This document shows positions 15,821 to 53,884 of a stretch of DNA of 64,000 nt, one piece after another. The DNA comes from Candidatus Egerieisoma sp. (GTDB taxonomy: Bacteria; Bacillota; Clostridia; UBA1212; UBA1255), in the NCBI GenBank assembly GCA_045580735.1, contig JAZNOJ010000053.1, positions 9,362 through 73,361 on the forward strand. Reading direction: 5' to 3'. The position numbers and the translations under genes were made by a program. A model generated the notes under the pieces. The model was not told where the DNA came from. It saw only the letters and a list, made by a program, of their open reading frames with translations, and did no database searches. How positions within the stretch are numbered: position 1 is the stretch's first letter; each line of letters opens with the position of its first letter.

Positions 15821-16416
15821 TCACAGCAACAATCAGCACAAAGCAAGGTTGAACAGCAGTTACAAGCATTGTCTGCATTCCTATAACCACGACCATATGA
15901 ATTATTTGTATAAGTATGTGTACTTCCCATCATAGAGTTATATGCCTGTCTATATGTGTTATTAGAGGGGTCCATGTTCATAGCTGTTTGATAATACTGT
16001 CTAGCATTGTCATACCAGCCCTTCATTTTTGAAATTTCTCCCATAAGATAATACCAATATGCATTTCTTTGTGATGACGGCATGCTTTCAAGTTTCATTT
16101 GTGCTTCGTCTAATCTATTTTGTCTTATAAGCATTATAATTTCAGCAAATAATGGATTACTATTTGGACCTTGATTGCCATATGAGCTATTTGAGTAAGA
16201 ATTACTTGAATAAGAGCTACGATTTCCTTGAGCTCTTTGCTTTGTAATTGTATCATACGCAAGATTAATTTCTTTAATTTTATCGGCTGCAAGGTCAGAA
16301 AGCGGATTGTTAACATATTTGTCAGGATGATATTTCTTGACTAACTCTCTATATGCTTTTTTTACTTCTTCGTCTGACGCATTTTCGCTTACACCTAAAA
16401 CCTCATAAGGATTCAT
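15787..16416 (-). CDS. J-domain (DnaJ-like) protein with TPR-like middle region and poly-Cys C-terminal tail
   Basis: The N-terminus MNPYEVLGV...[16 protein letters not shown] is a J domain with the HPD motif. The C-terminus reads [25 protein letters not shown]. Confidence 0.7.
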
Positions 16417-17287: not shown

Positions 17288-17320
17288 AGCATATCCGAAT
17301 ATTGTAATACACCTCCAAAA

Positions 17321-18298
17321 TTAAAGAGAAAGCATTTTACTTGTTTCAATCATAGACTCATCGATTTCTTTTTTCATTTCAAGTGCTTCTTCAATATCTA
17401 GTGCTATATATTTATCATTTTTAGAAGCAATGATTCGATTTTTTTCACCTAGCTGTAATACTTCAGTAGCCTTAACAGCCATCAAGCTTGCAGCAACTCT
17501 ATCACGAACAGTAGGACTTCCACCTCTTTGTAAGTGACCTAAAATTGTCGTTGTTGTAGAAATTCCGGTAATCGATTTTATCTGGTCAGCAATTTCGAGT
17601 GTTCCACCTACACCCTCTGCTATTATAACAATATAATGATGCTTTCCGCGATTTCTACAACCAATAATAGGCTGAATAATATCTGTATCAATATTAAAAT
17701 TCTTTTCCGGTAAAATACAAGCCTCTGCACCATCTGCTATAGCACAGTGAAGTGCTATATATCCTGCTCCACGTCCCATAACCTCAACAACACTGCATCT
17801 TTCATGTGAATATGCTGTATCTTTAATTTTATCTATTGAATCCTTAACTGTATTTAATGCTGTATCAAATCCTATAGTATAATCAGTGCATCCAATATCA
17901 TTATCAATTGTTGCAGGTATACCTACTACATTTACGCCTTCTCTAGAAAGTGCTCTTGCACCTCTAAAAGAACCATCACCACCGATAACAACAATTGCAT
18001 CTAATTGGAATACCTCTGCCATTCTGGCAGCTCTTTTTACACCCTCATCTGTTGCAAATTCCTTACTTCTTGCTGTTTGCAAAATAGTTCCGCCTCTGCT
18101 CATAATATCAGAAACTGATCTGAGATTCATCTCAAAGACGTCACCTTTTAATAAGCCTTCATATCCTTTTTTTATTCCATAAACCTGAAAACCTCTATAG
18201 ATACCTGATCTTACAACTGCTCTTATAGCAGCATTCATCCCAGGTGCATCTCCTCCAGATGTTAAAACACCAATTCTTTTAATTGCCATATTTCTCAA
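17321..18298 (-). CDS. pfkA: ATP-dependent 6-phosphofructokinase
   Basis: IKRIGVLTSGGDAPGMNAAIRAVV and GGDGS motifs, 325 aa. Confidence 0.95.
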   Translation of the reverse strand: MRNMAIKRIGVLTSGGDAPGMNAAIRAVVRSGIYRGFQVYGIKKGYEGLLKGDVFEMNLRSVSDIMSRGGTILQTARSKEFATDEGVKRAARMAEVFQLDAIVVIGGDGSFRGARALSREGVNVVGIPATIDNDIGCTDYTIGFDTALNTVKDSIDKIKDTAYSHERCSVVEVMGRGAGYIALHCAIADGAEACILPEKNFNIDTDIIQPIIGCRNRGKHHYIVIIAEGVGGTLEIADQIKSITGISTTTTILGHLQRGGSPTVRDRVAASLMAVKATEVLQLGEKNRIIASKNDKYIALDIEEALEMKKEIDESMIETSKMLSL

Positions 18299-18328
18299 AC
18301 CTCCTATAAACTATTTCAATAAATTATA

Positions 18329-33304: not shown

Positions 33305-33799
33305 TTATTCACCTATGATCATTACCTGAACAGTACGGCTTCTTGCTCTTGTTTGGTCAAAATCAATGAAATGAATATGACCGAATTCGCCTAAATCGAG
33401 CTCTCCATCGATTAATACGATTGTTTCACTTCTGCCAATGATTGACGAACGAAGATGTGCATCTGTATTATGACAGCCTCTTGCATCCTCATCATGCTCT
33501 TCAGCAAATTTTAAAGCCTTTGGTCCCGGATGTAAATACATACCCTCATGCTTGCATACAGGAATGATATCATCCATTATGTTTACTAAATCCTGCTGTA
33601 ATGTCTCAAGTCCTGTAATTGATTCATCAAAAGCACATTCCTGAGTGATTACACAGCAAGTTGTATGATGAGAATAAACTACACAAATACCATTCTTTAA
33701 GCCAGAACGCTTTGTGATTGCCTTTACTTCATCTGTTACATCGTGGAAAGTACATATCTTATCATTAGATTGTAGCTTAATCGCTTCTCTATAAATCAT
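33305..33799 (-). CDS. YjbQ/UPF0047 family protein, paralog A
   Basis: It aligns to E. coli YjbQ, with a core SHHTTCCV and the segment HPGP...HLRSSIIGRSETIVLIDGELDLGEFGHI. Length is 164 aa. Confidence 0.75.
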   Translation of the reverse strand: MIYREAIKLQSNDKICTFHDVTDEVKAITKRSGLKNGICVVYSHHTTCCVITQECAFDESITGLETLQQDLVNIMDDIIPVCKHEGMYLHPGPKALKFAEEHDEDARGCHNTDAHLRSSIIGRSETIVLIDGELDLGEFGHIHFIDFDQTRARSRTVQVMIIGE

Positions 33800-33801
33800 A
33801 A

Positions 33802-34512
33802 TTATTCTCCCATCTTCTTTAAATCATCTGCAGCTTGTCTTACAGCAGCAATCATCTCATCTATCATAGCAATAGGATCCTCAGCATTCATAATTCCAGA
33901 TGCTGCACCTGCTGCTTCTGAGCCAGCCATAATAAAATCATATACCTGCTTGCCGTTTGTGATACCTGCAGCCTGTTCAACTAATATATTAGAGTCAATC
34001 TCTCTAATAGCTTGCATAACTTCTTTAACGTAGCTCATGTCACTTACGCCACCACCTGAGCCACCGATTAATTCTGTAGGCTCTGGATTAATGATATCCG
34101 GATGGAGCTGTGCAATAGCTTTTGCTTCTGCAACAGTATCAGCGCATGCAAATACTAAGAAATCTATTTCGTTTGCTCTATCAATAGTTGCTTTTATTTG
34201 TGGAAGAGACATAGGCTTTTCACAATGGTTTACAACTACCCCTACGGCTCCTGCAGCCTTTAATGCTTCAGGAAGAACATCTGCCATGCCTCTGCCAGGA
34301 CGAAGTGTATCCATATATGGAGCTAATACAATAAGATTTTTTGTATTTTGAACAACATTTCTAATCTCTACAGCAGGGCAAATAAAAAGTACATCAATAT
34401 CATACTTTTCAGCCGCTGCGTCTGCTGCCTTTGCATACTCTAAAACCTTGTCACCATATATATAATTTTTTGTACCTATTTCAAAATAAGGTGTTCTAAT
34501 TTTTCTTTTCAT
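33802..34512 (-). CDS. Triosephosphate-isomerase-family (TIM-like) protein, divergent
   Basis: 236 aa that aligns across TPI: NHCE matches the TPI catalytic His-x-Glu region, and IINPEPTELIGGSGGGVS matches the YEPVWAIGTGK catalytic Glu loop. The C-terminal phosphate-binding-like GITNGKQ...AGSEAAGAASG is present. Confidence 0.55.
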   Translation of the reverse strand: MKRKIRTPYFEIGTKNYIYGDKVLEYAKAADAAAEKYDIDVLFICPAVEIRNVVQNTKNLIVLAPYMDTLRPGRGMADVLPEALKAAGAVGVVVNHCEKPMSLPQIKATIDRANEIDFLVFACADTVAEAKAIAQLHPDIINPEPTELIGGSGGGVSDMSYVKEVMQAIREIDSNILVEQAAGITNGKQVYDFIMAGSEAAGAASGIMNAEDPIAMIDEMIAAVRQAADDLKKMGE

Positions 34513-34533
34513 GTCTATATTGCCTCGATGAGA

Positions 34534-35154
34534 TTATCTCTTAAGTTGAAGATCATAGTGAGGATCATATGCCTTTTCTTCATCTGTATATTTACGAAGT
34601 GTATTAACAACCTCACCGTTGTTAAACTTACGATCTTCTACATCCTCTGTAGTACCCATAATAGTAACATTTAATTGTCTACGACGAGCTCTAACATGAT
34701 CCCAGTCTACAAAGTAAATATGTGCAAATTCTCCGCCATCAAGCTCACCATCTTTAATTGTCATAACCTCGCTACGGCCAAAGAATACACTTCTTAAATG
34801 TCCGTCTGTATTCATGCTTGTGAAGTCGCCTGGCTCATCAACGTAACGACCAAATTGTGTATGAATTGGTCCTGGATGACGATATTGATGCTCTTCAGCA
34901 AAATCAGGAGCAATTTTTCTCATAATATCAAGAAGGTCATGTTGTAAATATTCGATATCAAATGAATCGATGTCATGTGAACATTCTTGAATCATTACAC
35001 AGCAAGTTGTATGATGTGATGCAAGATTACATGTACCATTTTTTACGCCTGATGCTTTAACAATTTCTATAACTTCCTTTGATACATCGTGAAATGTTGG
35101 TATCCAACCTCTAGATTGTAATTCAATTTCCTTCTGATAAACTTTAAATTCCAT
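34534..35154 (-). CDS. YjbQ/UPF0047 family protein, paralog B (with C-terminal extension)
   Basis: It has the same SHHTTCCV core as paralog A, then HPGP...HLRSVFFGRSEVMTIKDGELDGGEFAHI. The 206 aa include a charged 45-aa tail. Confidence 0.75.
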   Translation of the reverse strand: MEFKVYQKEIELQSRGWIPTFHDVSKEVIEIVKASGVKNGTCNLASHHTTCCVMIQECSHDIDSFDIEYLQHDLLDIMRKIAPDFAEEHQYRHPGPIHTQFGRYVDEPGDFTSMNTDGHLRSVFFGRSEVMTIKDGELDGGEFAHIYFVDWDHVRARRRQLNVTIMGTTEDVEDRKFNNGEVVNTLRKYTDEEKAYDPHYDLQLKR

Positions 35155-40318: not shown

Positions 40319-41326
40319 ATGAAAACAGCACTAATTGGTCTTGGACGTATTGGGTGGCATTTTCACCTACAAGAAATACTTAATCATAAAGAATATTCTT
40401 TATGCGCTGTAGTTGATACAAGCCTCGAGCGTCTAAAAGAAGCTAAAGAAAAATATGGAATCAATGGATATCAAGATTATCAAGAAATGCTTGAAAAGGA
40501 AAAACCACAGCTTACAGTAATTGCGTCACCCACAATATTCCACGAGGAGCATGCAATCAAAGCTATGGAGCAGGGCTCTGATGTAATCTTAGATAAGCCA
40601 ATGGCGCAAAATGAAGAATCAGCAAAAAGAATTTATGACGCACATATAAAATTAAATAAAAAGCTCATTATTTATCAGCCACACAGATTCACAGCAGAGG
40701 CTGTCGTTGCTAAAGAAATAATAGAAAGCGGAAAGCTTGGACCATTATTTGACATAAAAAAAGCATGCGTTGGATATTCCAGAAGAAACGATTGGCAAGC
40801 ATTTAAGGATTTAGGTGGTGGCATGATGATGAATTATGGCGCACACTATATTGACCAGCTTATATATTTGTCAAACGAAAAGGTTATAGAAACATATAGC
40901 ATAACAAATAAAGTAGCCTCATTAGGTGATGCAGAGGACGTTGTAAAGCTAGTAATGAAAACAGACAAAGGTACAATATTGGATATCGATATAAGCCAAG
41001 CCTCTGCAATAATACTCCCCTCTCTAGTTATTTATGGAGAATATGGTGCCGCATTATTGAAAGAAGATATACATGGTCTTTGTTTTAATTTAAAATATTT
41101 TGACCCTAATAAATTACCACAAAAGACTGTATCAAGAAAAATGGAGGCTGAAGGTAGAGCATATCCATCAGAATCAATCAATTGGATTGAAGAGACAATC
41201 CCTGTATCAAATGATAAAGCAAAAAGCTTCTATAAAGAATGTTACGGTTACTTTTCAGGTACAGACGCTTCTCCTATCCCAGTTAACGAAACGATGGAAG
41301 TGATGAGAATACTTGCGCTTCAGTAA
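40319..41326 (+). CDS. Gfo/Idh/MocA-family NAD(P)-dependent oxidoreductase
   Basis: The N-terminus MKTALIGLGRIGWHFHLQEI is a Rossmann GxGxxG motif. Length is 335 aa. Confidence 0.85.
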   Translation: MKTALIGLGRIGWHFHLQEILNHKEYSLCAVVDTSLERLKEAKEKYGINGYQDYQEMLEKEKPQLTVIASPTIFHEEHAIKAMEQGSDVILDKPMAQNEESAKRIYDAHIKLNKKLIIYQPHRFTAEAVVAKEIIESGKLGPLFDIKKACVGYSRRNDWQAFKDLGGGMMMNYGAHYIDQLIYLSNEKVIETYSITNKVASLGDAEDVVKLVMKTDKGTILDIDISQASAIILPSLVIYGEYGAALLKEDIHGLCFNLKYFDPNKLPQKTVSRKMEAEGRAYPSESINWIEETIPVSNDKAKSFYKECYGYFSGTDASPIPVNETMEVMRILALQ

Positions 41327-41340
41327 AGGAAGTTGATTTT

Positions 41341-42429
41341 ATGAAAAAAGCAATAGACCATTACAAATATTTACATCAGCATCCTGAGCTTTCAGAAAAT
41401 GAATTTAATACAGCAAAATACGTATATGATGCTCTTATCGAATACGGCTATAAGAGCGTAATGTTGACTGAAAATGGTGTTTATGCAGATTTGATAGTTA
41501 ATACAAATAATCCTTACGTCATTTTCCGAGCAGATATGGATGCTCTTCCACTCAAGGAAGAAAGCCCTGTTTCATATAAATCTAAAATTGATGGAGTTAT
41601 GCATGCTTGTGGACACGATAGTCACACTGCCATGTTATTAGAGGCTGCTTATCATCTTCATAATTCAAAGCTTCCATTTAACATAAGATTTATATTTCAA
41701 CCTGCAGAAGAAGGAACTAAAGGTGCTAGAGCGTTGATTTCAAAGGGTGTACTTCCCCAAAATTTAAAAGCTGCCTTTTCTATTCACGTATGGCCAGATA
41801 TACCCAAAGCAAAAATTGCAACAAAAACCGGACCGATTATGGCCTCAGGCGATTTATTACGTATTAATTGCTATGGAAAAAGTGCACATTGCTCTAAAAG
41901 AGAAAAAGGCTCTGATGCATTAATGACAGCAATTGAAATTGCCTCTAAATTCGATGAGATTGAAAAATCCGTCAATGATGAGTTAATATTATTTTGCGGA
42001 AGCCTTCACGGAGGTTCAAGTCACAACATAGTTGTAAATGAAGCATATATAAGAGGAGCACTAAGAACCTTTTCAGAAGAAACAAGAAGTAATATATTAA
42101 ATAAAATAAAACATGAAATAAAGAAAATCGGTGAAAAATTTAATGTACAAACAGAGTTAATATTAGAAAGCCAATCTCCTGTTGTAATAAATGATGAAAC
42201 AATTGTAAAACAAATATTTGATATTTTTCCCGATGCTTACTGCCTGGATGCTCCAACGTATGCAGCAGAAGACTTTTCATATTATTTACAGCATTGCAAA
42301 GGAGCAGAGCTTTGGTTAGGTCTCGGTGAATCTGTACCGCTTCACGATAATCGCTTTTATGTCCCTGAAGAAATTCTCCCCTACGGTGTAAATGCATGGA
42401 TAAAAATCGCCAATAATATCAAAATATAA
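41341..42429 (+). CDS. M20D-family amidohydrolase (N-acyl-amino-acid amidohydrolase / hippuricase-like)
   Basis: MHACGHDSHTAMLL metal-binding motif, 362 aa. Confidence 0.85.
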   Translation: MKKAIDHYKYLHQHPELSENEFNTAKYVYDALIEYGYKSVMLTENGVYADLIVNTNNPYVIFRADMDALPLKEESPVSYKSKIDGVMHACGHDSHTAMLLEAAYHLHNSKLPFNIRFIFQPAEEGTKGARALISKGVLPQNLKAAFSIHVWPDIPKAKIATKTGPIMASGDLLRINCYGKSAHCSKREKGSDALMTAIEIASKFDEIEKSVNDELILFCGSLHGGSSHNIVVNEAYIRGALRTFSEETRSNILNKIKHEIKKIGEKFNVQTELILESQSPVVINDETIVKQIFDIFPDAYCLDAPTYAAEDFSYYLQHCKGAELWLGLGESVPLHDNRFYVPEEILPYGVNAWIKIANNIKI

Positions 42430-42462
42430 TGTCAAATTAAAAAATATAAAGGAGTTAATATC

Positions 42463-43506
42463 ATGATTGAAAATTCTAAAAACATTGTTCTCAACGAAGA
42501 AGCACTCAACGAGCTACTTACTACACCTTCTGATGGTCTTATCGAGGATATCGCAAAAATTAAAGGTGATATAATGGTTCTTGGTGCAGGTGGAAAGATG
42601 GGTCCTGACATTTGTATTCTAGCAAAAAAAGCAATTGACAAAGCTGGAATAAATAAAAATGTATATGCTGTATCAAGATTTTCAGAAAAAGCAGCCGCAC
42701 AAAGATTAGAAGCCTTTGGTATAAAAGTTATTTCTGCTGATTTATCTGAGGATGGTGCTTTAGAAAAATTACCGGATTGTGAAAATATCATTTTTATGGC
42801 TGGTAAAAAGTTTGGCACAAATGGAAGTGAATATCTTACATGGGGAATGAATTCTTGGCTTCCATGTATGACCGCCAGAAGATTTTCGAAATCAAATTTC
42901 GTTGTTTTCTCAAGCGGAAATATTTATCCAAAAGTACCAACTTGTAGTGGAGGTGCTACTGAAGAAACTCCAACATACCCTATAGGAGAATACTGTATGT
43001 CCTGCTTGGCTAGAGAAAGAGCCTTTGAATATGCTGCAAAAACGCGTGGTGCTAAAGTATGTATAATGCGTTTAAATTATGCAATAGATTTACGTTATGG
43101 TGTTCTTCATGATATTTCTCAAACAATATTGTCCGGAAAGCCTGTTGATTTAGCTGCAATGCCAAGCTTTAATTGCATATGGCAAAAGGATGCGAATGAA
43201 GCAGCTATAAGATTATTGCTACATACAAGTGAAGAAATGAATATAGTTAATGTAACAGGACCTGAAACTGCCGGTGTTAAACAAACAGCAATATTACTCG
43301 CAAAAGCACTGGGAAAGGAAGTTACATTTATTGGAGAGGAAGCCTCAACAGCATATCTAAACAATGCCGGAAAAATGTTTAAAATGTTTGGGTATCCAAC
43401 ATATTCACTCGATAAATTAATTGAAATGCAAGCTGCATGGCTTTTAAACGGTGGAAGAAGCCTCGGTAAGCCTACACATTTTGAAGAAAGGAATGGAAAT
43501 TATTAA
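42463..43506 (+). CDS. NAD-dependent epimerase/dehydratase-like (extended SDR / NmrA-like) protein
   Basis: MVLGAGGKMGPDI Rossmann motif near the N-terminus, 347 aa. The exact family is uncertain. Confidence 0.55.
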   Translation: MIENSKNIVLNEEALNELLTTPSDGLIEDIAKIKGDIMVLGAGGKMGPDICILAKKAIDKAGINKNVYAVSRFSEKAAAQRLEAFGIKVISADLSEDGALEKLPDCENIIFMAGKKFGTNGSEYLTWGMNSWLPCMTARRFSKSNFVVFSSGNIYPKVPTCSGGATEETPTYPIGEYCMSCLARERAFEYAAKTRGAKVCIMRLNYAIDLRYGVLHDISQTILSGKPVDLAAMPSFNCIWQKDANEAAIRLLLHTSEEMNIVNVTGPETAGVKQTAILLAKALGKEVTFIGEEASTAYLNNAGKMFKMFGYPTYSLDKLIEMQAAWLLNGGRSLGKPTHFEERNGNY

Positions 43507-44561
43507 TGGACAGACATATAGAAGCTTTAAAAATATTACACAAAGGAACAGTCATTCCTGCTATTCCACTAGCGCTAACCAACGAACGAAAATTCGATGA
43601 AGAAAGCCAACGTAGAATGGTGCGATATTATTTAGCCGCAGGCTCAGGTGGTATAGCAGCTGCAGTTCATAGCACACAATTTGAAATTAGAGAGCCTCAA
43701 CATAACTTATTTGAGCCTGTATTAAGGGCTGTAGCAGAGGAAGTAGACAAATTTGAGGCTAAAAACGGAAAAACAATAATTCGTATCTCCGGTGTATGTG
43801 GCCTTAAAGAGCAAGCTACAAAGGAAGCAGAGCTAGCAAAAAAATATGGCTACGATGCTGTTCTTTTAAGTCCAGGTGGCTTAAATCATTTATCTGAAGA
43901 AGAATTATTAGAAAGAACAGAAGCTGTTTCAAAGGTTCTGCCGGTAATTGGTTTTTATCTTCAAGAAGCTGTAGGAGGCAGAAAGCTGAGTAAAAATTAC
44001 TGGAAAGAGCTTGCAAATATTGAAAATGTTGTTGCAATAAAATGTGCATGCTTCGATAGATATTGTACACAAGACCTTGTTAAAGGCGTGATGGAGTCAA
44101 ATCGTTGTGAAGCTGTTGCACTTTACACAGGAAACGACGATCATATTGTTACTGATTTATTAACCCCTTTCACATTAGAATCAAATACAGGTGTAAAGCA
44201 AAAACACTTTGTAGGCGGTCTTTTAGGACAATGGTCAGTATGGACAAAAAAAGCTGTTGAAATATTTGAAAAATGTGTGAAAGCAAGAGAATCAGGTTGT
44301 ATTCCAACTGAGCTTTTAAATATTGGTGAGCATTTAACAGAGTGTAATGGTGCTGTATTTGATGTAGCAAATAAGTTTGCAGGCTGTATTCCCGGTCTTC
44401 ATTATGTACTCATGAAGCAAGGCTTGATGAAAGGAACATGGTGTCTGAATCCTAATGAAATCCTCTCCCCTTGTCAAGCTGAGGAAATTGACAGAGTAGC
44501 CAAGGCTTATCCAGAAATAATTGATGATGATTTTGTAAAAGATTTTCTTAAAAATGACTAA
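43506..44561 (+). CDS. DapA-like class I aldolase / dihydrodipicolinate-synthase-family protein (putative)
   Basis: 351 aa. The N-terminal GTVIPAIPLALT...GSGGIAAAVHSTQFE resembles the DapA family GxTGE region. Its ATG overlaps the previous stop (TAATG), indicating translational coupling. Confidence 0.4.
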   Translation: MDRHIEALKILHKGTVIPAIPLALTNERKFDEESQRRMVRYYLAAGSGGIAAAVHSTQFEIREPQHNLFEPVLRAVAEEVDKFEAKNGKTIIRISGVCGLKEQATKEAELAKKYGYDAVLLSPGGLNHLSEEELLERTEAVSKVLPVIGFYLQEAVGGRKLSKNYWKELANIENVVAIKCACFDRYCTQDLVKGVMESNRCEAVALYTGNDDHIVTDLLTPFTLESNTGVKQKHFVGGLLGQWSVWTKKAVEIFEKCVKARESGCIPTELLNIGEHLTECNGAVFDVANKFAGCIPGLHYVLMKQGLMKGTWCLNPNEILSPCQAEEIDRVAKAYPEIIDDDFVKDFLKND

Positions 44562-44580: not shown

Positions 44581-44626
44581 TAAAAAAGCTGCCTAATACA
44601 TGTAATGTGTTAGACAGCTTTTTAAT
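44581..44626. terminator. Bidirectional terminator between convergent operons
   Basis: aaaaaAGCTGcCTAA ... TTAGaCAGCTtttt, an imperfect palindrome with an A-tract 5' and a T-tract 3'. It lies between the DapA-like stop at 44561 and the NRPS stop at 44638. Confidence 0.55.
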
Positions 44627-44637
44627 ATTCTTTTTTA

Positions 44638-47600
44638 TCAATCAAAAAAACCAAGTGTTATCAATGCCTTCATCGCTCTATCAATATACCCTTCATCGAT
44701 AAGCGGCCAGTTAAAGCCCAGACGATACAAAGCCTTAATGGTAAACTCATTTTCTTTTCCAATCATTCTGTATGACTTATCATGAGTATTATAAGAAATT
44801 AAAGCAGATATTGACATATTACGTTCTTCATCAGATAAGCCTTCTGTAAAGAATTTATTAAATTCCTCTTCATCGACGATTTTAATATTTATTGAGTTTT
44901 TCCTTAACACCTCTAATACATTAAACATATGAACAGTATGACAGCTATAGGTATGAAATACTGTGTATTTATCAGGAGCTCCGGCAAGAGTAATAATTGC
45001 CTTTGCAGTATAATCCACAGGTGAAAACTCTGCCCTCATATCCAGACTACCAATCGGAAATGCCCCAATTGCGTAATATGCCTTTATTCTATTCATAAAT
45101 CCATTTGTATTAAAGTTTGCCTGGAACTCACCATCCGCCTCTCTGCTCATAAGGTTTCCGACTCTCATAATCTTGCCACGTAAGCCTTTTTCTTTTATTG
45201 CACTTAGAACAGCCTTTTCTGCTTTCCATTTTGTATAAGCATATTTATTATCAATCATTTGCCCAAAGTCCAGCATATTCTCTCTTAGCTCAATTGTATT
45301 TGGTAAGCTATCATTTACATTTGCACCAGCTATACTCGTTGTTGATACCTGTACAAGCTTTTTATTAAGAACAGCACATATTTCTATAAGATTTTCAACT
45401 CCATTAAAATTAATTTTTTCCAGAATATCATCCGATGTAAAATGCTTAACACATGCTGCACAATTAATAATTGTATCAAATTCAATTTGCTTTAAAGAAT
45501 CAAGAAGCTTTTTATCTGTAATATCTCCATTAACAACAATTATTTTATCTCCGAAAAGCTCTTCCATTGGATCATCGAAATAATACATAAGAAGTGTCTT
45601 TAATCGTGCCTCTGCTGATGTTTTCTTTCCTGGTCTTACCAGACAATAAATTTTTGGTGTACCCGCCTCTATTAATTGTTTAACAACGTGTATTCCTAAA
45701 AATCCGGTTGAACCAGCAACCAAAACGTTTCCTATATCAGAATATGTGATATTTACCGCTTCAGTAGGAATATTATATTTCAATACATCATAAAGATTCT
45801 CTTCGTTTAATGAAAAAGCTTCAAGCATGTTATCAGCTTTTTTAGAAGCATTGTTGCTTTGAGTATCTATTTTTATCTCTCTTGAAGTACCACGCTGCTT
45901 CATAACAAACTCTGATAGCTTTTGAGGTGTTGAATAATCAAATACATCCTTATAAACAACAGGAATATTTTCAACCATACATTTCATTGCAATCTTTGAT
46001 GCTAATAGTGAAGTGCCACCTAATAAAAAGAAATCATCATCTGCAAATACCTCATCTATACCTAGCACCTGTGCGAACATATCACAAAATCTCTTTTCAG
46101 TATCATTTGTCGGCTTTACTCCCGCATTGCTTCGTGTTGAAATAACAGGCTCCGGAAGAGCTTTTTTATTAACTTTTCCATTTTGAGTCATTGGCATCTT
46201 ATCTAGCTTCATGAATACTGACGGAACCATATATTCTGTCAATGATTTTTTCAAATATGAAACAAGTTCATTTTCGTCAACATTTTCCTTGGCTGTATAA
46301 TATCCACATAAGAATTGACCCTGCGCCTCACTTCCTTTTAACAAAACAACACTTTGATTAATAGCTTCAAAAGAATTCATCGCACCTTCAATCTCATCAA
46401 GCTCAACTCTTAAACCTCTTAGCTTAACCTGATTATCCATTCTTCCCATAAATAATATTTTACCTTCAAAATTATAACGTGCCATATCTCCGCTTTTGTA
46501 GGCAGGCATATCATTATATTTGAAAAACTTTTCATTTGTAAGCTCGTCATTTCCAACGTATCCACGTCCTACACCAGCCCCGGTAATTGTTAGCTCACCG
46601 GGTGCATAAGGTGGTAAGCAATTGCCGTTTTTATCTAGAATATAAACACCGGCATTTGCAAGAGGTCCGCCAATAGTAATATAATCACTCGTTATATGGT
46701 CAATTGTAGCTGATACTGTAATTTCAGTTGGTCCGTAGCTATTGCTTATATCAGCCATAACACCTGCAGCTCGAAGCTTTTTATATAAAGAGGCTGGAAA
46801 TGCTTCAGCACCAATTACCATATATTTTATCTTACATAAAGCTTCATGTGTTTGTGGTATATCAAGCATATTGTTCATATATGATGGTGTGCATTTGATA
46901 ACATCAACATTATTTCTAATAAGCATATTTGCAAGTAAAATAGGATTGTGAATTTCTTCCTCAGTCGCCATAGCTACTGTAGCTCCATTATATAAAGGAG
47001 CCATTTCCTCAACAATTGAAACATCAAAGGTTAACGCTGCTAATGCAAGAACAACTCTTTCACTATTTGCAAATTCCTTATAGCCGTAAGCTTTTGGATT
47101 ATTTTTATTATTCATTACAAAGTTTGTAAGATTTCTATGCTCAATCATTACTCCCTTAGGCTTACCGGTAGAACCTGATGTAAAAATACAATAAGCAAGA
47201 TTATTAGGATTAATTAGTACGTTTGGATTACTAATTTCATCTGACTTAAGTATATCTTCTATACATAAAGCTCTATACTGCGAAAACAACTCAGTTCTGT
47301 TTTTTAATACATCATTTGTAGTAATAATGATTTTAGCATTTGCCCCGGAAAGAATATAACCTATTCTTTCGTCAGGATATTCAGGAGAAATAGGAACAAA
47401 TGCACCGCCGGATTTTAATACTCCTTGCCGTGCAGCATATGCATTAATACATCTTGGCATAATAACTGCTATCTTATTTTCAGGTTGAACGCCCTCGGAA
47501 ATCAATGTATTTGCAACTCTGTTTGCATTTTCATTTAATTCTCTATAAGTAATACTTTGATTTTCACATATAACTGCAAGCTTTTCAGGATTATTCTCAA

Positions 47601-50600
47601 CTGAACGCTCAAAAAGCTTATTTGCAGTAATAGGTTCATTTGTAGTTTCTGTATCATTAAAGCTCTTAATCATTGATGCTGCATTATCTGAAAGTATAGA
47701 TACTTCCTTAAGCTTCTTTTTGTTTACAAATTCTGTCATTGCCTTTTCAAGAGCTTCCATAAAGCCTTCAATATATTTTCTACTAAATTTACCAGCGTTA
47801 TATTCACAAACCCAACAAATTTTTCCATTTTTCAAAAATACATTTACGTTTAATGGTGCTTTTGCACTGTCTAAGCTTAGCTCTATCATTTTAGCAGGTT
47901 CACTGCACAAGGAATCAAAAACGAACTCACTTCCTTGATAAGCAAACATTACATCAGCCCTTGCACCAAGCTCCCTGCTTATTTCTGCAAATGAATATAT
48001 ATCATATGTCATGCTATCTAAGAGCTGTTTTCCAACTTGTGCAACATATTCATTTACCAGCTTTTGAGAATCTTCTATATTAATTACTACAGGTAATGTT
48101 TTTACAAGCATTGAGATAGTATTTGTTAATCTTGAATCACTTCTGCCATTATAAATACTTGCAAAAGATAATATTTCATTACCATTATATTTTGATAGTA
48201 CAAAGCCAAATACGGCAGTAAAAAACGCATTCATACCAAGCTTATTTACATCACAATAATATTTAACATCCTCTGCAGTAAGAGCACTACTAATATATTC
48301 AAATGATTCTGCCTTCTGTAATTCATTCTTTTTTACATCACCAAGCGGCAAGCTTTCTTTTTCTGCATCAGCTAAAAGCGACTTATAATAATTTTTAGCC
48401 TTTTCAAAGAAACTACTCTTACGAAGTGTACTTTCATTTAATACAACCTCATAACCACTATATTTTTCTATTTCCAAAGTTTCTTCCTTATATGCTTTTG
48501 ATATATCATTTAAGAAAATAAGCATAGATGAACCATCACTAATAATATGATGCATTTCTATTAAAATATATAATTTATCGGCATCTATAATTTTAACTCT
48601 AAATAAGCTGCCGCCAATTAGCTTAAATGGTTTTACAAGATTATCTTTTATCTCCTCTAACGATGAAGCCTTTATAATTTCAATAGAAGCTTCATCAAAT
48701 GAATAATCTCCGTCCATTCTTCTCTGTCTTAAATCACCCTCCTCGTTCAAAAACATACGAGTTTTTATATATGGATGTGCATTAACTGCTGCGACAACTG
48801 CTGACTTAAGCTTATCTATATCCAAATTTCTGCTTATTTCAAGTAAAACCGGAATATTATAAACTGTAGCATCAGGCTTAGAAACTGACTCGACATAAAT
48901 ACCTTCCTGTGTTTTAGAAATTGCGTAGTCATTTAATATTTCAAACTTTTCTTCCTCAACACTATTAGCAAAAAATTCTTCCAGCTTAAGAATTGTATCA
49001 TTTTCCTTCAAATCAGAAGTTTTAACATTAAAATTAAATTCCTCGGATAATGCTACATTAAGTCTAACTGCTCCAATAGAAGTAAGGCCAGCTTCATAGA
49101 TATTTGTTTTTATTCCAAACTCCTTATGACCAACAACCTCTGAAATACAATCAAAAAGTCTCTGCTGAATATCATTTTGCGGAGGTATTGCATCTACAGC
49201 TTTTCTTTTCGGAACTGGCAACGCTCTTTTATTAACCTTTTGATTTTGATTATATGGAATAGCAGAAATTTGCATAGTTACAGCAGGTACCATATAAGGT
49301 GGCTTCTCTTCTAAAATAAAGCTGTTTAGAGCATCAATATCAATTTCCTCATCAGAAACAATATATGCAGCAATATATTTTCCACCTGAAGGTTCTTCAA
49401 AGGCAGCTACTGTCGCATCCCTTATACCTTCAAAACGTCGTATAACCTCTTCTACCTCAGTAAGCTCAATTCTAAAGCCTCTTATTTTAACCTGTGCATC
49501 TCTACGACCAATAAATTGAATTTTTCCATCACCCATATATCTTACTATATCGCCTGTATGGTAAACTCTGCTATAATCTTCATCATCAGAAAAAGGATTA
49601 TTAGTAAATGCTGCTGCTGTTTGTTCAGGTCTATTTAAGTACCCTCTTGAAACCTGAGGTCCGGAAATCCATAGCTCACCAACAGCACCTACCGGAAGTA
49701 GCTTGCCATTAGAATCGGTCACGTAAAGCTTAATATTATCTGTTGCTTTTCCGATAGGAACATCAATATATTTTTTATCAACATGAAATGCTGTCATAAA
49801 TACAGTACACTCTGTAGGACCATACGCGTTATACAAAGCATATTTTTCAGGAGGATTTACTGGTACAAGCTTTTCACCACCCACAAGCAAATACTTTAAT
49901 TTTTCAGGTGCCTGCATTAATGCAAATTGCCTTCCAACCTGAGTTGTAATAAATGCGTTCGTTACATTCTCTTTTGTATATAATTCTTGTAAAGCTTTTA
50001 AATCTAATCTTAATGCTTCAGAAACTATTAATACAGTTGCACCTGCAGTTAAAGTTGGATATAAATCCATCATGCAAGCATCAAAGCCATAGCTGGCATA
50101 TGCAGCAGCAACGGAATTTTGTGTAAGCTCAAATTTTGTTCTAAAATAATCACAAAAAGCAATTAAATTTCTATGCTCAAGCATTACGCCCTTAGGAAGC
50201 CCTGTAGAACCTGATGTATAAAGCATAATAAATAAATCTTCAGGTTTTGGTAATCTAAGCTCTACATCTAAGTCCTTCATATTTTCAATTTCAGAAAGCA
50301 TTATTCTTCTGCCTTTAAATTCATCGTTAATGATAGAATCATATTCAGGTACTGTTATTAATATTTTTGCATTTGAATCTTGTACCATTAAATTCAGTCT
50401 TTCCGGAGGATAAGTCGGATCTAATGGTAAATATGCACAGCATGCCTTTAAAATACCCATCGAGCATAGAACTATATATTCACTTCTAGGTATAAGAACT
50501 GCAATTACATCCTCTTTACCTACTCCCATAATATTCAAATTCTTTGCTAATTTATCAGATATTAAATCTACATCTTTATATGTTAATCTCTTTTCTTCAT

Positions 50601-53600
50601 ATATTACTGCAATGCTTTCAGGTGATTTTTTAACATTATTTTTAAACAATTCAACTATTGTTGCATTTTTATCATATGCTTTATGTGTAATATTAAACTT
50701 ATCTATTTCCTTTCTGAGCGCAGCATCAATTAATTCAATATCATTTAATTTTTCTAATGCCAACATTCCCTTTACGATTGATATAAACATACTAGCAAGA
50801 CTGTTCATTATTTCTTTACTGTAAAGCTCAGAGCGATAATTTATAATAACCTCATACGAATCCTTACCCTTTAAAACCATTACATTTATATCAAATTGCA
50901 CATCCCCTGTTTCGGGATTAACAATAGGGCAATATTCATTTTCTATCATAGCACCATTAAGTAAATCAGCTTGATAAACAAAAGCAATATCTGCTCTTAT
51001 AGAATATTGTGATGCAAGCTCTCCAAAGGATATGCAGTCATGCTTCATTGTTTCAAAGAAATAATTCTGCGTGTTTTTTAAATATTCCTTTACACTCATG
51101 CTTTCATCAAATTCAAAAAACAAAGGCAATGTTTTTACAAACATACCTACTGAATTTTCCAATCTAGAATCATGTCTTCCATTATTTACTGTACAGAATA
51201 TAGAATCCCTTGCACCATTAAATTTAGCAAGAGCATAAGCAAAAGCACCAAGAAACAGTGTATTTTCTGTAATACCATTATTTCTGACAAAATGTATAAC
51301 CTCTCGAATTTTAACATCCTCATTTAAAGAAACACTTAGCTTTCCAGCACCCTTATCAGTCTTTAATACAATATCGGGAACAGGTCTGGAATCAGCATCT
51401 ACTGCGCTAAGCTTATTTTCAAAATACTTCTGTGCTTCCTTATACTCCTTAGTATCCTTTAACACTTCCTCATACCTTGATATATCAAAAATTGTCAATT
51501 CTTCTGTCTTGATTTCTTTTCCATTATACACATCTGCAATTTGATTCATTAATACTTTTACTGAGCTTCCATCAAAAACAATGTGATGTATATCAAAAAT
51601 AAAATATATTTTTTTATCACATTTTAAAATTTCCGCACGCCAAAGAGGACCATCTTTTAAATTAAATGGTTTTATAAATTCGTTTAGATATTCTTCAAAA
51701 TTACTAATTTCTTTAATTTCGATGTTCGCATTAACATTTGATAAAACCATCTGTGGTGTGTTATCAACAGTAATTCCTAAAACCTTATGGTTATTAAAAA
51801 CATAATTTATAGCATTTGCAAGCTTATTAACATCTACATTATTTGGCAAAATGCAATACATAGGAATATTATACATTTTCGATTCAGGCTCATTTATACA
51901 TTCTAAATATACACCCAACTGTGATTCGGTAAGAGGATATACATCTAAAAGCTCATCCTCATGCTCTATTAAAGCTTTAGAGCTATCTGCTTCAATTAAT
52001 TCTGATATTTTTTCGATAGTTCTTCCCATCAAAATGTGACTTGGTAAAAGTCCTTCAATATTAGCTTCTGATATAAGTGCAAGCACCTTTATTGAATCAC
52101 CGCCAAGACTTATAAAATCATCTTTTATGCCAATTTTTCCGCATCCTAATACTTTCTCAACACTTTTACAAAGCTTAATTTGAATATCATTTTCAGGAGC
52201 AACATATGCCTCCTTGTAATCATCTATTTTAGGTGCTTTTAATGCATTTCTATCAAGCTTTCCGTTTACATTTTTAGGCATTTCATCAAGCTTTTTAAAA
52301 AATCTAGGTATCATATAATCCGGTATAGAATCTTTAAGTTTTGCATGAATAACACTTTGAGATACATTATTATTCGATGTATAAAAAGCTGCAAGATATG
52401 TCTGTCCCATATTGTCATTAAATGCCTTAACAACTGAATTTGTGATTCCCTCTATACTATTTAGCAGATTTTCAATTTCAAGTGTTTCTACTCTTTGCCC
52501 ATTTATTTTTACCATCCAATCCTTACGATTAGAATAAACAAGATTTCCGTTATCATCAAAATAACCCATATCTCCTGTATGAACAAGTACACTTCCATCC
52601 TCTTGCTTTATAACCTTCCTTGCTGTCTCCTCTGAAAGCTTATAATAACACTTAAGGAAATTACCTTGAATACATATTTCTCCAATTTCTCCATTTTTAA
52701 CAGCATTGTTTTCATCATCTAATATATGAATTTTTACGTTATTTACTGCTTTTCCAATAGGTGTATTATCATATTTCTTATCGACCTTAAAATATGTTAC
52801 CGTTGCAATTGTTTCACTACTACCATAAAGGTTATATAAATCAAAATCCTCAAAATAAACACCGCTTAATCTTTCACTTCCCGTAAATACTCTTACAAGC
52901 TTAGCTGCTCCATTAAACATTCTAAGAAGCTGAGGACTAATAAACGAGGCAGTTATACCATTTTCATTAAAATATTTTTCCATTTCTCGTACATTTTTTC
53001 GTACATAATCACTTAAAATATGAATAGTACCTCCGCAATAGAGTGTAACTAAATATTCTAATACGAATGCTATGAAGGACATTGGCGCTGTAGCACCATA
53101 GATTATATTTTCTACATTATCAAATAAAAACTTTTGCCTTTGAACAGAAAAAGCCAAAGCAGCTATAGAATGTAATATTCCCTTTGGTTTACCTGTTGAG
53201 CCAGATGTATAAATAAGAAACGCATTATCCTCATCATCTAATATAATTGGCTCTATAGATTCATATGAATCTATATCATAAAAAAAATCCTCTCTTATGA
53301 TATATTTAGCATTACATTCTCCAACAATGTAATCTATTCTATCCTTTGGATATTCTTTAATAAGAGAAACAACACAGCAGCCTGCCTTTAATATGCCTAG
53401 ATAAGCCGCAATATATTCTGCTTTTCTATCTAGTAGTATTGCAACAACATCTCCGGGTATACATCCAAGCGAGATTAGCTTTGACGAAATTTTCGAGCTT
53501 AAGCTGTCAAGCTCCTCATATGTTGTATGCCTTTTAGCTTCATTATCTACAATAGCTGTTTTAGATGCATTATTTATAAAAATATCCCTCATTATTTCAA

Positions 53601-53610
53601 TATAATTCAT
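44638..53610 (-). CDS. Trimodular non-ribosomal peptide synthetase, A-T-C-A-T-C-A-T-R, with a terminal thioester reductase
   Basis: 2990 aa. A3/A10 motifs: A1 YTSGSTGKPKG / NGKLDR; A2 YTSGSTGLPKG / NQKVNKRAL; A3 FTSGSTGKPKG / NGKVNKKAL. T serines sit in LGGDSI (aa 506), GLTSIG (aa 1511) and GGTSLL (aa 2534). C domains carry HHIVFDGSS (aa ~675) and HHIISDGSS (aa ~1687). The C-terminal R domain has VLVAGSTGFLGIHVV (aa 2631-2645) and YAYTKWK (aa ~2790). There is no TE or E domain. The RBS GAGGGG lies upstream of the start. Confidence 0.9.
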   Translation of the reverse strand: MNYIEIMRDIFINNASKTAIVDNEAKRHTTYEELDSLSSKISSKLISLGCIPGDVVAILLDRKAEYIAAYLGILKAGCCVVSLIKEYPKDRIDYIVGECNAKYIIREDFFYDIDSYESIEPIILDDEDNAFLIYTSGSTGKPKGILHSIAALAFSVQRQKFLFDNVENIIYGATAPMSFIAFVLEYLVTLYCGGTIHILSDYVRKNVREMEKYFNENGITASFISPQLLRMFNGAAKLVRVFTGSERLSGVYFEDFDLYNLYGSSETIATVTYFKVDKKYDNTPIGKAVNNVKIHILDDENNAVKNGEIGEICIQGNFLKCYYKLSEETARKVIKQEDGSVLVHTGDMGYFDDNGNLVYSNRKDWMVKINGQRVETLEIENLLNSIEGITNSVVKAFNDNMGQTYLAAFYTSNNNVSQSVIHAKLKDSIPDYMIPRFFKKLDEMPKNVNGKLDRNALKAPKIDDYKEAYVAPENDIQIKLCKSVEKVLGCGKIGIKDDFISLGGDSIKVLALISEANIEGLLPSHILMGRTIEKISELIEADSSKALIEHEDELLDVYPLTESQLGVYLECINEPESKMYNIPMYCILPNNVDVNKLANAINYVFNNHKVLGITVDNTPQMVLSNVNANIEIKEISNFEEYLNEFIKPFNLKDGPLWRAEILKCDKKIYFIFDIHHIVFDGSSVKVLMNQIADVYNGKEIKTEELTIFDISRYEEVLKDTKEYKEAQKYFENKLSAVDADSRPVPDIVLKTDKGAGKLSVSLNEDVKIREVIHFVRNNGITENTLFLGAFAYALAKFNGARDSIFCTVNNGRHDSRLENSVGMFVKTLPLFFEFDESMSVKEYLKNTQNYFFETMKHDCISFGELASQYSIRADIAFVYQADLLNGAMIENEYCPIVNPETGDVQFDINVMVLKGKDSYEVIINYRSELYSKEIMNSLASMFISIVKGMLALEKLNDIELIDAALRKEIDKFNITHKAYDKNATIVELFKNNVKKSPESIAVIYEEKRLTYKDVDLISDKLAKNLNIMGVGKEDVIAVLIPRSEYIVLCSMGILKACCAYLPLDPTYPPERLNLMVQDSNAKILITVPEYDSIINDEFKGRRIMLSEIENMKDLDVELRLPKPEDLFIMLYTSGSTGLPKGVMLEHRNLIAFCDYFRTKFELTQNSVAAAYASYGFDACMMDLYPTLTAGATVLIVSEALRLDLKALQELYTKENVTNAFITTQVGRQFALMQAPEKLKYLLVGGEKLVPVNPPEKYALYNAYGPTECTVFMTAFHVDKKYIDVPIGKATDNIKLYVTDSNGKLLPVGAVGELWISGPQVSRGYLNRPEQTAAAFTNNPFSDDEDYSRVYHTGDIVRYMGDGKIQFIGRRDAQVKIRGFRIELTEVEEVIRRFEGIRDATVAAFEEPSGGKYIAAYIVSDEEIDIDALNSFILEEKPPYMVPAVTMQISAIPYNQNQKVNKRALPVPKRKAVDAIPPQNDIQQRLFDCISEVVGHKEFGIKTNIYEAGLTSIGAVRLNVALSEEFNFNVKTSDLKENDTILKLEEFFANSVEEEKFEILNDYAISKTQEGIYVESVSKPDATVYNIPVLLEISRNLDIDKLKSAVVAAVNAHPYIKTRMFLNEEGDLRQRRMDGDYSFDEASIEIIKASSLEEIKDNLVKPFKLIGGSLFRVKIIDADKLYILIEMHHIISDGSSMLIFLNDISKAYKEETLEIEKYSGYEVVLNESTLRKSSFFEKAKNYYKSLLADAEKESLPLGDVKKNELQKAESFEYISSALTAEDVKYYCDVNKLGMNAFFTAVFGFVLSKYNGNEILSFASIYNGRSDSRLTNTISMLVKTLPVVINIEDSQKLVNEYVAQVGKQLLDSMTYDIYSFAEISRELGARADVMFAYQGSEFVFDSLCSEPAKMIELSLDSAKAPLNVNVFLKNGKICWVCEYNAGKFSRKYIEGFMEALEKAMTEFVNKKKLKEVSILSDNAASMIKSFNDTETTNEPITANKLFERSVENNPEKLAVICENQSITYRELNENANRVANTLISEGVQPENKIAVIMPRCINAYAARQGVLKSGGAFVPISPEYPDERIGYILSGANAKIIITTNDVLKNRTELFSQYRALCIEDILKSDEISNPNVLINPNNLAYCIFTSGSTGKPKGVMIEHRNLTNFVMNNKNNPKAYGYKEFANSERVVLALAALTFDVSIVEEMAPLYNGATVAMATEEEIHNPILLANMLIRNNVDVIKCTPSYMNNMLDIPQTHEALCKIKYMVIGAEAFPASLYKKLRAAGVMADISNSYGPTEITVSATIDHITSDYITIGGPLANAGVYILDKNGNCLPPYAPGELTITGAGVGRGYVGNDELTNEKFFKYNDMPAYKSGDMARYNFEGKILFMGRMDNQVKLRGLRVELDEIEGAMNSFEAINQSVVLLKGSEAQGQFLCGYYTAKENVDENELVSYLKKSLTEYMVPSVFMKLDKMPMTQNGKVNKKALPEPVISTRSNAGVKPTNDTEKRFCDMFAQVLGIDEVFADDDFFLLGGTSLLASKIAMKCMVENIPVVYKDVFDYSTPQKLSEFVMKQRGTSREIKIDTQSNNASKKADNMLEAFSLNEENLYDVLKYNIPTEAVNITYSDIGNVLVAGSTGFLGIHVVKQLIEAGTPKIYCLVRPGKKTSAEARLKTLLMYYFDDPMEELFGDKIIVVNGDITDKKLLDSLKQIEFDTIINCAACVKHFTSDDILEKINFNGVENLIEICAVLNKKLVQVSTTSIAGANVNDSLPNTIELRENMLDFGQMIDNKYAYTKWKAEKAVLSAIKEKGLRGKIMRVGNLMSREADGEFQANFNTNGFMNRIKAYYAIGAFPIGSLDMRAEFSPVDYTAKAIITLAGAPDKYTVFHTYSCHTVHMFNVLEVLRKNSINIKIVDEEEFNKFFTEGLSDEERNMSISALISYNTHDKSYRMIGKENEFTIKALYRLGFNWPLIDEGYIDRAMKALITLGFFD

Positions 53611-53820
53611 ATTTACCCCTCGATTCTTTAATATGATTAATCCATATATTAAAATTATACAATACGTACGCCTAAAAATAATATTCTCATAATACAGTAA
53701 AAAAAATTTTTTTTCAACAAAAATAATAAAGCTTCAAATAGCGTATTCTCGATGGTAAATTACATTTCAAATATGTTAAAATTTTCATAGAAAATAAAGC
53801 TTAAAATACTAAAATTTAAA

Positions 53821-53849
53821 TTGACAAAATACCCTAAAACTCGTATAAT
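53821..53849 (+). promoter_or_regulatory. Consensus sigma-A promoter of the pyr operon
   Basis: TTGACA (53821-53826) - 17 nt - TATAAT (53844-53849), followed by the RBS AAGGAGGA and the ATG at 53885. Confidence 0.7.
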
Positions 53850-53884
53850 GAAAAATCGAAAATAAAACAAGGAGGAACCCGAAA

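Follow-up and report, generated by a model that had tools for sequence, protein, structure and literature searches.

A solitary three-module nonribosomal peptide synthetase gene in a clostridial chromosome, predicted to release an N-capped dipeptide aldehyde

The minus strand of a 64,000-nucleotide stretch of contig JAZNOJ010000053.1 from Candidatus Egerieisoma sp. (the window, by which the whole stretch at its full length is meant) carries a gene for a nonribosomal peptide synthetase (NRPS) that ends in a thioester reductase. The gene, its domains and the signals around it are collected in Table 1. The reading frame spans 8,973 nt, starts at an ATG and is not interrupted, and the assembly-line genes for the peptide amount to this single gene of about 9 kb. 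Annotation with Pfam and NCBIfam, combined with domain hidden Markov models (HMMs) constructed from the NRPS protein for boundary calls, resolves adenylation (A), carrier (T), condensation (C) and reductase (R) domains in the order A-T-C-A-T-C-A-T-R. Pfam reports three AMP-binding, two Condensation, PP-binding and one NAD_binding_4 (residues 2631-2872) matches. Core motifs are intact in all nine domains, TSGSTGxPKG being found three times and HHxxxDG twice. The same architecture had been proposed in the original prediction, made from the letters alone, and is borne out by Pfam, domain HMMs and motifs; the boundaries given there lie all within ~80 nt, and most within 30 nt, of the HMM boundaries, and its T-domain positions match the carrier serines at 52095, 49080 and 46011. 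Direct repeats of 34-62 nt, 74-86% identical and spaced by 2991-3039 nt (for example, 47131-47186 with 50167-50222), reside within the gene; repeats spaced by ~3.03 kb are the trace of a module duplication.

Table 1. Coordinates of the NRPS gene, its domains and nearby signals in the window
Feature	Position	Strand	Basis
Hairpin between A-tract and T-tract, in the 76-nt gap between the NRPS and DHDPS-like genes	44583..44623		minimum free energy -19.5 and -19.4 kcal/mol, two strands
NRPS gene, A-T-C-A-T-C-A-T-R, 2990 aa	44638..53610	minus	open reading frame (ORF) list, Pfam, NCBIfam, domain HMMs
R, thioester reductase, aa 2626-2990	44641..45735	minus	Pfam NAD_binding_4, PDB matches, residue alignment
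T3, carrier, aa 2501-2572, LGGTS, Ser2534 at 46009-46011	45895..46110	minus	HMM, motif
A3, aa 1996-2491, code DVVKVGSVSK, Lys at position 278	46138..47625	minus	HMM, alignment
C2, condensation, aa 1559-1987, HHIISDG at aa 1687-1693	47650..48936	minus	HMM, motif
T2, carrier, aa 1478-1550, AGLTS, Ser1511 at 49078-49080	48961..49179	minus	Pfam, HMM, motif
A2, aa 982-1470, code DAMFLGAVFK, hydrophobic pocket typical of the family	49201..50667	minus	HMM, alignment
C1, condensation, aa 555-975, HHIVFDG at aa 675-681	50686..51948	minus	HMM, motif
T1, carrier, aa 473-545, LGGDS, Ser506 at 52093-52095	51976..52194	minus	HMM, motif
A1, loading adenylation domain, aa 3-463, code IALFFGLATK, Asp235-less subclass	52222..53604	minus	HMM, alignment
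Ile180 codon of A1, Stachelhaus position 235	53071..53073	minus	GrsA-PheA alignment, family alignment
Shine-Dalgarno GAGGGG, 5 nt ahead of the ATG	53616..53621	minus	read from sequence
Extended -10, TGTATAAT	53654-53661	minus	consensus match only
Promoter-like TTGAAA-17-TATTAT, 10/12 consensus match	53689..53717	minus	consensus match only
Sigma-70 promoter before pyrC, TTGACA-17-TATAAT, 12/12	within 53821-53883	plus	consensus match

Pocket residues of the three A domains were read from an alignment to GrsA-PheA; for the reference itself the published code DAWTIAAICK is recovered at positions 235-517, and the numbering is therefore right. The Stachelhaus codes extracted in this way are listed in Table 1. 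In A1, position 235 is occupied by Ile180. The A4 motif, expected to read SFDAS in the Asp form, is SFIAF in A1, GFDAC in A2 and TFDVS in A3. In A domains Asp235 contacts the alpha-amino group of the substrate (PMC11355689), and in A domains activating 2-oxo acids an aliphatic or hydrophobic residue replaces it (PMC10949194, PMC13643306).

The substitution was followed in the relatives of the gene. A total of 433 related stretches were found, 80 of which, 33-47% identical, were kept as loci, and all counts refer to these 80. Together with the window they contain 24 A domains devoid of Asp235, A1 included; the 23 others carry I, V or A. All 24 stand at the start of A-first proteins composed of three or four modules, and Asp235 is kept by all internal and terminal A domains. 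When domains are ranked by phmmer from the window A1, the 23 other Asp235-less starters occupy ranks 2-24, ahead of every Asp-type domain. The Asp235-less starters form, as judged from alignment and ranking, a coherent and conserved subclass, of which Ile180 is a regular feature rather than a one-off mutation. Tested alone against TIGR01733, the model of amino-acid adenylation, A1 scores 237.5 bits, under the curated cut-off of 317.4; the three A domains summed reach 965.8 bits, which would put A2 and A3 at an average of ~364. The motif residues A3, A5, A7, A8 and A10 of A1, including the A10 lysine, are preserved, and the domain therefore looks catalytically competent.

A different reading, in which each of the three A domains loads an amino acid and a tripeptide aldehyde or alcohol with a free amine results, is unlikely, even though true tripeptide versions exist in the family: L050 and L061, two loci with the same architecture, have Asp-type first A domains. 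A1 is itself of the NRPS type, and its nearest relatives in the PDB are the amino-acid-activating LgrA, TycA and GrsA, not DhbE-type or FAAL enzymes. These matches fit the descent of A1 from an amino-acid-activating domain, and make an aryl-acid (DhbE-type) or FAAL-type starter less likely. Set against a tripeptide are Ile180 in the place of Asp235, the position of A1 in a distinct Asp-less subclass and its score under the TIGR01733 cut-off. Asp is missing at position 236, too, so that the pattern of a beta-amino acid is not seen; the residue is Ala, and a beta-amino acid starter is ruled out. The tripeptide aldehyde of the original prediction gives way, on the grounds of Ile180, the Asp235-less subclass and the bit score of A1, to an N-capped dipeptide aldehyde as the likelier product.

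No ketoreductase (KR) domain was found in the loading module: T1 (residues 473-545) directly follows A1 (residues 3-463), and the sole KR-like match in the protein falls inside R. The starter would therefore be a retained 2-oxo acid, a directly loaded 2-hydroxy acid, or another carboxylic acid.

At the other end of the protein, the R domain features the motifs GSTGFLG (residues 2633-2639), VSTTS (2755-2759) and YAYTK (2790-2794, with Tyr2790 and Lys2794), and is directly preceded by T3. The domain matches Pfam PF07993 (NAD_binding_4) with E=2.5e-37. Among solved structures, the PCP-R of Mru_0351 comes closest (6VTJ/6VTZ; E=1.9e-71, ~370 residues aligned), the aldehyde-releasing AusA-R is second (4F6C; E=5.9e-37), and the alcohol-forming MxaA (4U7W) matches with E=1.5e-18. 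The Rossmann motif is aligned with the same motif in 6VTJ and AusA-R, and the Thr, Tyr and Lys residues line up with VSTIS and Y..SK of AusA-R. Redox-inactive R* domains are recognised by the lack of this Tyr. An epimerase, another short-chain dehydrogenase/reductase and a redox-dead R* are therefore ruled out by the intact Rossmann motif, Thr, Tyr2790 and Lys2794; the terminal domain is, to judge from these residues, a redox-competent NAD(P)H thioester reductase. A reductase rather than a thioesterase at the C-terminus, and release of the product by reduction as an aldehyde or alcohol, had both been predicted at the outset, and both agree with the match of R to solved reductases and with the catalytic Tyr and Lys found on comparison with characterised ones.

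Whether reduction stops at the aldehyde bears on the activity of the product. R might carry out a four-electron reduction, in which case the product would be no electrophilic inhibitor but an N-capped dipeptidyl alcohol; the chances of this are put at about one in five. NRPS R domains of the same fold, those of MxaA, Mtb-R and the myxochelin synthetase MxcG, release alcohols, MxcG is a strong NCBIfam match across C2-A3-T3-R, and the sequence determinants of aldehyde versus alcohol release are not established (PMC8024701). Yet R is much nearer to the R domains of Mru_0351 and AusA than to MxaA, as the E-values above indicate, and aldehydes are what the gut members characterised so far release (PMC8518294, PMC12327764).

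Taken as a whole, the gene is read as an intact, chromosomal and solitary three-module NRPS that probably makes a dipeptide aldehyde N-capped by a 2-oxo-, 2-hydroxy- or other acyl group. The NRPS would be phosphopantetheinylated by a phosphopantetheinyl transferase (PPTase) encoded elsewhere. A1-T1 would load a carboxylic acid other than an alpha-amino acid, likeliest a 2-oxo or 2-hydroxy acid whose side chain is hydrophobic, another aliphatic or aryl carboxylate being possible as well. C1 would form the amide bond between this acid and the hydrophobic amino acid supplied by A2, and C2 would add a polar, probably acidic or amide, amino acid supplied by A3. R, with NAD(P)H, would cleave the thioester on T3 to yield the N-capped dipeptidyl aldehyde, from which an alcohol may arise by further reduction. 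Since the N-terminus is capped, cyclisation to a pyrazinone would not take place, and the electrophilic aldehyde should persist. The product that we infer, substrate classes, aldehyde and inhibition alike, would be cap-CO-NH-(hydrophobic residue)-(polar residue)-H, a protease-inhibitor chemotype. The 'DAMF.G' code of A2 dominates the first amino-acid position across the family, and characterised gut members have Leu or Met there (PMC8518294).

Several points weigh against the capped dipeptide aldehyde, or against parts of it. Stachelhaus-type inference is weak in so diverged a family, and the substrate calls are predictions. The polar or acidic substrate of A3 is proposed with low confidence, from Lys278, small residues elsewhere in the pocket, and the reference codes DLTKVGHIGK for Asp, DATKVGEVGK for Asn and DLGKTGVINK for 3-methyl-Glu, in which Lys278 goes with acidic or amide side chains. 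C1 scores 463 bits with the HMM of C domains that follow Asp235-less starters, 425 bits with that of internal C domains and 342 bits with that of starter-C domains, and C2 scores highest with internal C domains; the scores speak for an Asp235-less loading module, but the comparison is confounded by phylogeny. Keto-acid modules normally have the KR that the loading module lacks, so that the starter may be of another class. The aldehyde and alcohol outcomes of R are not separable by sequence (PMC8024701). Asp235 is kept in some keto-acid A domains, so that the rule is not absolute either way (PMC10949194). Finally, no PPTase, exporter or regulator gene is found nearby, which leaves expression and activity in the host as assumptions.

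A bolder version of the capped dipeptide aldehyde would have the 2-oxoacyl group retained for want of a KR, and give a two-warhead molecule with an N-terminal alpha-ketoamide and a C-terminal aldehyde. It would make the gene part of an uncharacterised Asp235-less branch, found in Clostridia and Methanomassiliicoccales-type archaea, that caps peptides with fermentation-derived 2-oxo or 2-hydroxy acids, and of which the synthetase has here been uncoupled from its dedicated exporter and partner-switching regulators. As a whole this is improbable, roughly one chance in eight. No experimental characterisation of the Asp235-less loading branch was found in the literature, the primary papers on human-gut members being known via secondary descriptions.

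The best full-length identity to the relatives is 41-47%, and no close orthologue was found with one genome per species (185,579 species). For A3-T3-R, the best match among 5.8 billion proteins is 52-55% identical. The relatives are overwhelmingly found in rumen or gut metagenome-assembled genomes (MAGs) of Clostridiales, Ruminococcus, Lachnospiraceae and Acutalibacteraceae, and also occur in Prevotella/Bacteroidales and in archaea (Methanomethylophilaceae, Methanomassiliicoccaceae, Thermoplasmata). Two cultured isolates are among them, Anaerovorax odorimutans and Hominibacterium faecale. Most relatives have the architecture C-A-T-C-A-T-R; A-T-C-A-T-C-A-T-R and four-module forms are also found. 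Different parts of the window protein have different nearest relatives, as in a mosaic: A1-T1-C1 is nearest to the Anaerovorax and Hominibacterium proteins (39-45% identity), A2-T2 to proteins of rumen MAGs (55-58%), A3-T3 to those of other rumen MAGs (55-56%), and R to an archaeal protein (51%). The family has plainly spread horizontally across phyla and domains. Of the 'gut-Clostridia-associated family' earlier assumed, the association with rumen and gut stands, and the restriction to Clostridia does not, Bacteroidales and Methanomassiliicoccales/Methanobrevibacter archaea being members as well. As a new and diverged member of a known gut and rumen family of reductase-ending NRPS (NRPS-R), the gene does not represent a new kind of system, and all its mechanistic elements are known from other systems.

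Five archaeal MAG loci (L012, L030, L036, L041 and L060), from Methanomethylophilaceae, Methanomassiliicoccaceae and Thermoplasmata, carry a three-module NRPS-R at ~10001-18950 with an Asp235-less starter. The codes of these starters are VAVFMGVGMK, IVTFIGGSMK and similar, and the last-module code is the same in all, DAMFMGIVNK. The Asp235-less branch, as defined by the pocket codes, crosses the boundary between bacteria and archaea. Last-module codes across all 80 loci (L001-L080) fall into few recurrent types: DAQSRGCVAK in most Bacteroidales, and DAHSRGTVSK, DMKNMGTVSK/DFKGIGTVSK, DVLKDGGITK, D[FV]MSDGGISK, DAEGTGVDDK and the hydrophobic DAMFSGAIFK. The codes suggest that the C-terminal (P1) residue has been diversified in the family, often to charged side chains.

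Relatives of the gene are frequently flanked by the same partners, which were identified by clustering the flanking ORFs at the related loci. A MatE exporter is present at 50/80 loci, with a median gap of 14 nt to the NRPS, a Cache-SpoIIE phosphatase fused to a HATPase_c_2 kinase at 46/80, a STAS protein at 42/80, an Alginate_exp-like outer-membrane protein at 30/80, in Bacteroidales, and an Sfp-type PPTase at 27/80. The regulator recurring at 46 loci (e.g. L035, 6093-8285) is a 731-aa protein made up of a Cache/PDC sensor, a SpoIIE-type PP2C phosphatase and a HATPase_c_2 anti-sigma kinase, and is paired with a 100-aa STAS protein. The same partners surround the NRPS genes of Methanobrevibacter ruminantium; in that genome, a second, separate locus encodes the PPTase and part of the regulators (Leahy 2010, PMC2812497).

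None of the five families has a tblastn match in the window at E<=1e-4. Six-frame scans of the window for MbtH and Sfp motifs were negative, and neither annotation nor motif scans detected a PPTase, MbtH, type II thioesterase or MatE gene in it. The 38 other gene-like ORFs of at least 100 aa, annotated with Pfam and NCBIfam, belong to housekeeping and sugar metabolism only. Genes for EamA and ThrE-type transporters are found at 26.3-28.5 kb, at least 16 kb from the NRPS. Compared with its relatives, the gene is unusually solitary in the window. That it is accompanied by no MbtH, PPTase, type II thioesterase, exporter or regulator, as first noted from the sequence, is right for the window by tblastn, motif scans and annotation. 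The conclusion then drawn, that the whole biosynthetic gene cluster (BGC) is this one ORF, does not hold, since the relatives have a conserved partner set, and a PPTase at least must act in trans. The comparison of neighbourhoods proposed with it thus brought out a conserved MatE/SpoIIE-kinase/STAS/PPTase set that is absent from the window.

The isolation of the gene raises the question whether it makes anything in the host. A silent or decaying remnant, stranded without exporter, regulators and PPTase, is a rather improbable reading, which draws on the absence from the window of all five families recurring in 27-50 of the 80 related loci, and on the lack of an orthologue above 47% identity among the species-representative genomes searched. 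A remnant is hard to reconcile with an unbroken frame of 8,973 nt, intact core motifs in nine domains, codon usage that is fully host-like, a good Shine-Dalgarno sequence, promoter-like sites and a terminator. That partners can act in trans is seen from M. ruminantium, which has its PPTase and regulator genes at a locus of their own (PMC2812497). The expression signals assigned to the NRPS (Table 1) are candidate sites that match a consensus, and are no proof of expression. The hairpin in the 76-nt gap is likely a bidirectional terminator between convergent genes; it was not flagged by a simple terminator scan, though clear on folding. A Rfam scan of the whole window gave no match, and no riboswitch, T-box or PyrR element was found.

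The NRPS is flanked on one side by the plus-strand operon pyrC-carA-carB-pyrK-pyrD-pyrF-pyrE-pyrB-pyrI, and on the other by a plus-strand unit of four genes (40319-44561) encoding a Gfo/Idh/MocA oxidoreductase, an M20 amidohydrolase, a NAD-dependent epimerase-like protein (no NCBIfam match) and a DHDPS-like aldolase. The flanks are as originally described, two plus-strand primary-metabolism operons with the NRPS on the opposite strand between them. The four-gene unit might belong to the cluster, and supply the starter acid or tailor or detoxify the product. In favour are its place right beside the NRPS and the kinds of enzyme that it encodes, which might plausibly form or break down 2-oxo or 2-hydroxy acids or N-acyl amino acids. 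Yet the 80 related NRPS loci contain no homologue of any of the four genes, the unit lies on the opposite strand, and a strong hairpin separates it from the NRPS; such a role is very unlikely. More generally, no gene neighbouring the NRPS in the window is found beside any of the 80 related NRPS, and the neighbours are ruled out as cluster partners, no homologue being near any relative.

The window is ordinary chromosome, with genes for LepA, SpoIIP, AspRS, MutS2, DnaE, PFK, phosphoglucomutase and a P-type ATPase, and the complete pyrimidine operon. The DnaE of the host is 77% identical to that of 'Ruminococcaceae/Oscillospiraceae bacterium' MAGs, and ~59% identical to Acetivibrio-type DnaE; a human gut metagenome is the source of one pyr operon relative. 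The host is an uncultured Oscillospiraceae-like bacterium, apparently one of the gut/rumen-type Clostridia.

The NRPS gene has a GC content of 0.324, a GC3 of 0.207 and host-like codon usage, and hence no compositional sign of horizontal transfer. A search for flanking direct or inverted repeats as insertion scars found only the intragenic repeats spaced by ~3.03 kb and chance matches, and no mobility genes were annotated near the NRPS in the window. The nearest relatives found with PyrC have a syntenic pyr operon, CarB being 94.6% identical in L082 and 86% in L084. Upstream of pyrC in L082-L084, ~40 nt (53844-53883), corresponding to the pyrC promoter and ribosome-binding site region, are 91-93% conserved. 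Beyond this stretch different genes are found in each genome; synteny is therefore broken at the pyrC promoter, and the NRPS and the four-gene unit are both missing upstream of pyrC in these relatives. The NRPS gene is variable at the pyrC-adjacent position; a recent insertion is not demonstrated. The view of the locus as an inserted accessory one draws some strength from the absence of the gene upstream of pyrC in the nearest relatives, and none from its host-like GC, GC3 and codons or from its surroundings, where flanking repeats and mobility genes are missing.

Other genes of the window are of some interest for the host. An 818-aa protein (23645-26101, minus strand) has a type-I dockerin and weak pentapeptide-repeat matches; the dockerin suggests that the host builds cellulosome-type complexes. 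Between spoIIP and aspS, a minus-strand gene (7193-11485) encodes a 1430-aa fusion of two BcrAD_BadFG ATPase modules and DUF2229 ('CoA enzyme activase'). Two UPF0047 (YjbQ-like) genes surround a TIM-barrel-like gene at 33305-35154 (minus strand), and are adjoined by Amidohydro_2, arabinose-isomerase-like, FGGY kinase and RpiB genes; the region is possibly a sugar-acid catabolic island.

Known systems resemble the window gene to different degrees. Guo et al. (2017, Cell) reportedly described the gut Clostridia NRPS-R family as making (N-acyl) dipeptide aldehydes or pyrazinones, BGC0001686 being associated with N-octanoyl-Met-Phe-H, and ruminopeptin of Ruminococcus bromii is said to have been reported by Schneider & Balskus (2018). 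Like the window gene, members of this family are multimodular, reside in anaerobic Firmicutes and end in T-R, and the N-capped dipeptide aldehyde predicted here is of the same type; relatives with the architecture C-A-T-C-A-T-R share with it a hydrophobic 'DAMF.G'-type internal A domain. N-octanoyl-Met-Phe-H and ruminopeptin (N-acyl-Leu-Glu-H) are gut-Clostridia protease inhibitors (PMC8518294, PMC12327764), and ruminopeptin has a polar C-terminal residue, Glu, as is predicted for the window product (PMC8518294). The family and the window gene differ, according to secondary descriptions, in the way of capping, which involves a starter C domain and an acyl donor in the gut family, and a dedicated A-T module with an ordinary-type C domain as predicted here. 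The window gene also stands apart in having no exporter, regulator or PPTase neighbours, and at most 47% full-length identity to any relative.

Mru_0351 and Mru_0068 of Methanobrevibacter ruminantium M1 belong to the same horizontally spread rumen/gut family (PMC2812497), and the R structure of Mru_0351 is the closest (6VTJ; PMC8024701). Mru_0351 has four modules, the window gene three, and next to the M. ruminantium genes lie MatE, phosphatase and anti-sigma-antagonist genes, of which the window has none. AusA, which makes aureusimine/phevalin in Staphylococcus aureus, provides the best NCBIfam model for the window protein and the second-best solved R homologue, an aldehyde-releasing one. AusA differs in being bimodular (A-T-C-A-T-R), with two A domains for amino acids and a free amine that cyclises to a pyrazinone; the window protein, with three modules and an Asp-less starter, scores 1439.5 bits with the AusA model NF047350, under the cut-off of 2500.

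Cyanobacterial aldehyde synthetases begin with an A-KR-T starter module and have R at the end of the last one. Those for spumigin, pseudospumigin, aeruginosin and nostosin follow the same logic as the window gene, a non-amino-acid starter and reductive release, and are work-alikes, no family assignment being implied. Spumigin-type systems differ in that their loading module contains a KR, the synthetase is divided between SpuA and SpuB, and Arg comes last. Their products are peptide aldehydes capped by 2-hydroxy acids, such as Hpla-Hty-Ile-argininal and nostosin A (2-hydroxy-acid-Ile-argininal), and are protease inhibitors (PMC5640712).

NRPS are the most numerous class of predicted BGCs in rumen genomes (5,346 of 14,814 BGCs; PMC8241843), and the products of the rumen branch, including that of the structurally studied Mru_0351, are not known (PMC8024701). 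The window gene has its whole assembly line in one ORF, with no required neighbours, and is therefore easy to approach; expressed together with Sfp, this one gene should yield the product. The working concept of NRPS is left unchanged by it. What the gene offers is a compact, single-gene entry to rumen NRPS chemistry, and a direct test of what the conserved Asp235-less starters load, and of whether this branch makes capped peptide aldehydes like the human-gut branch.

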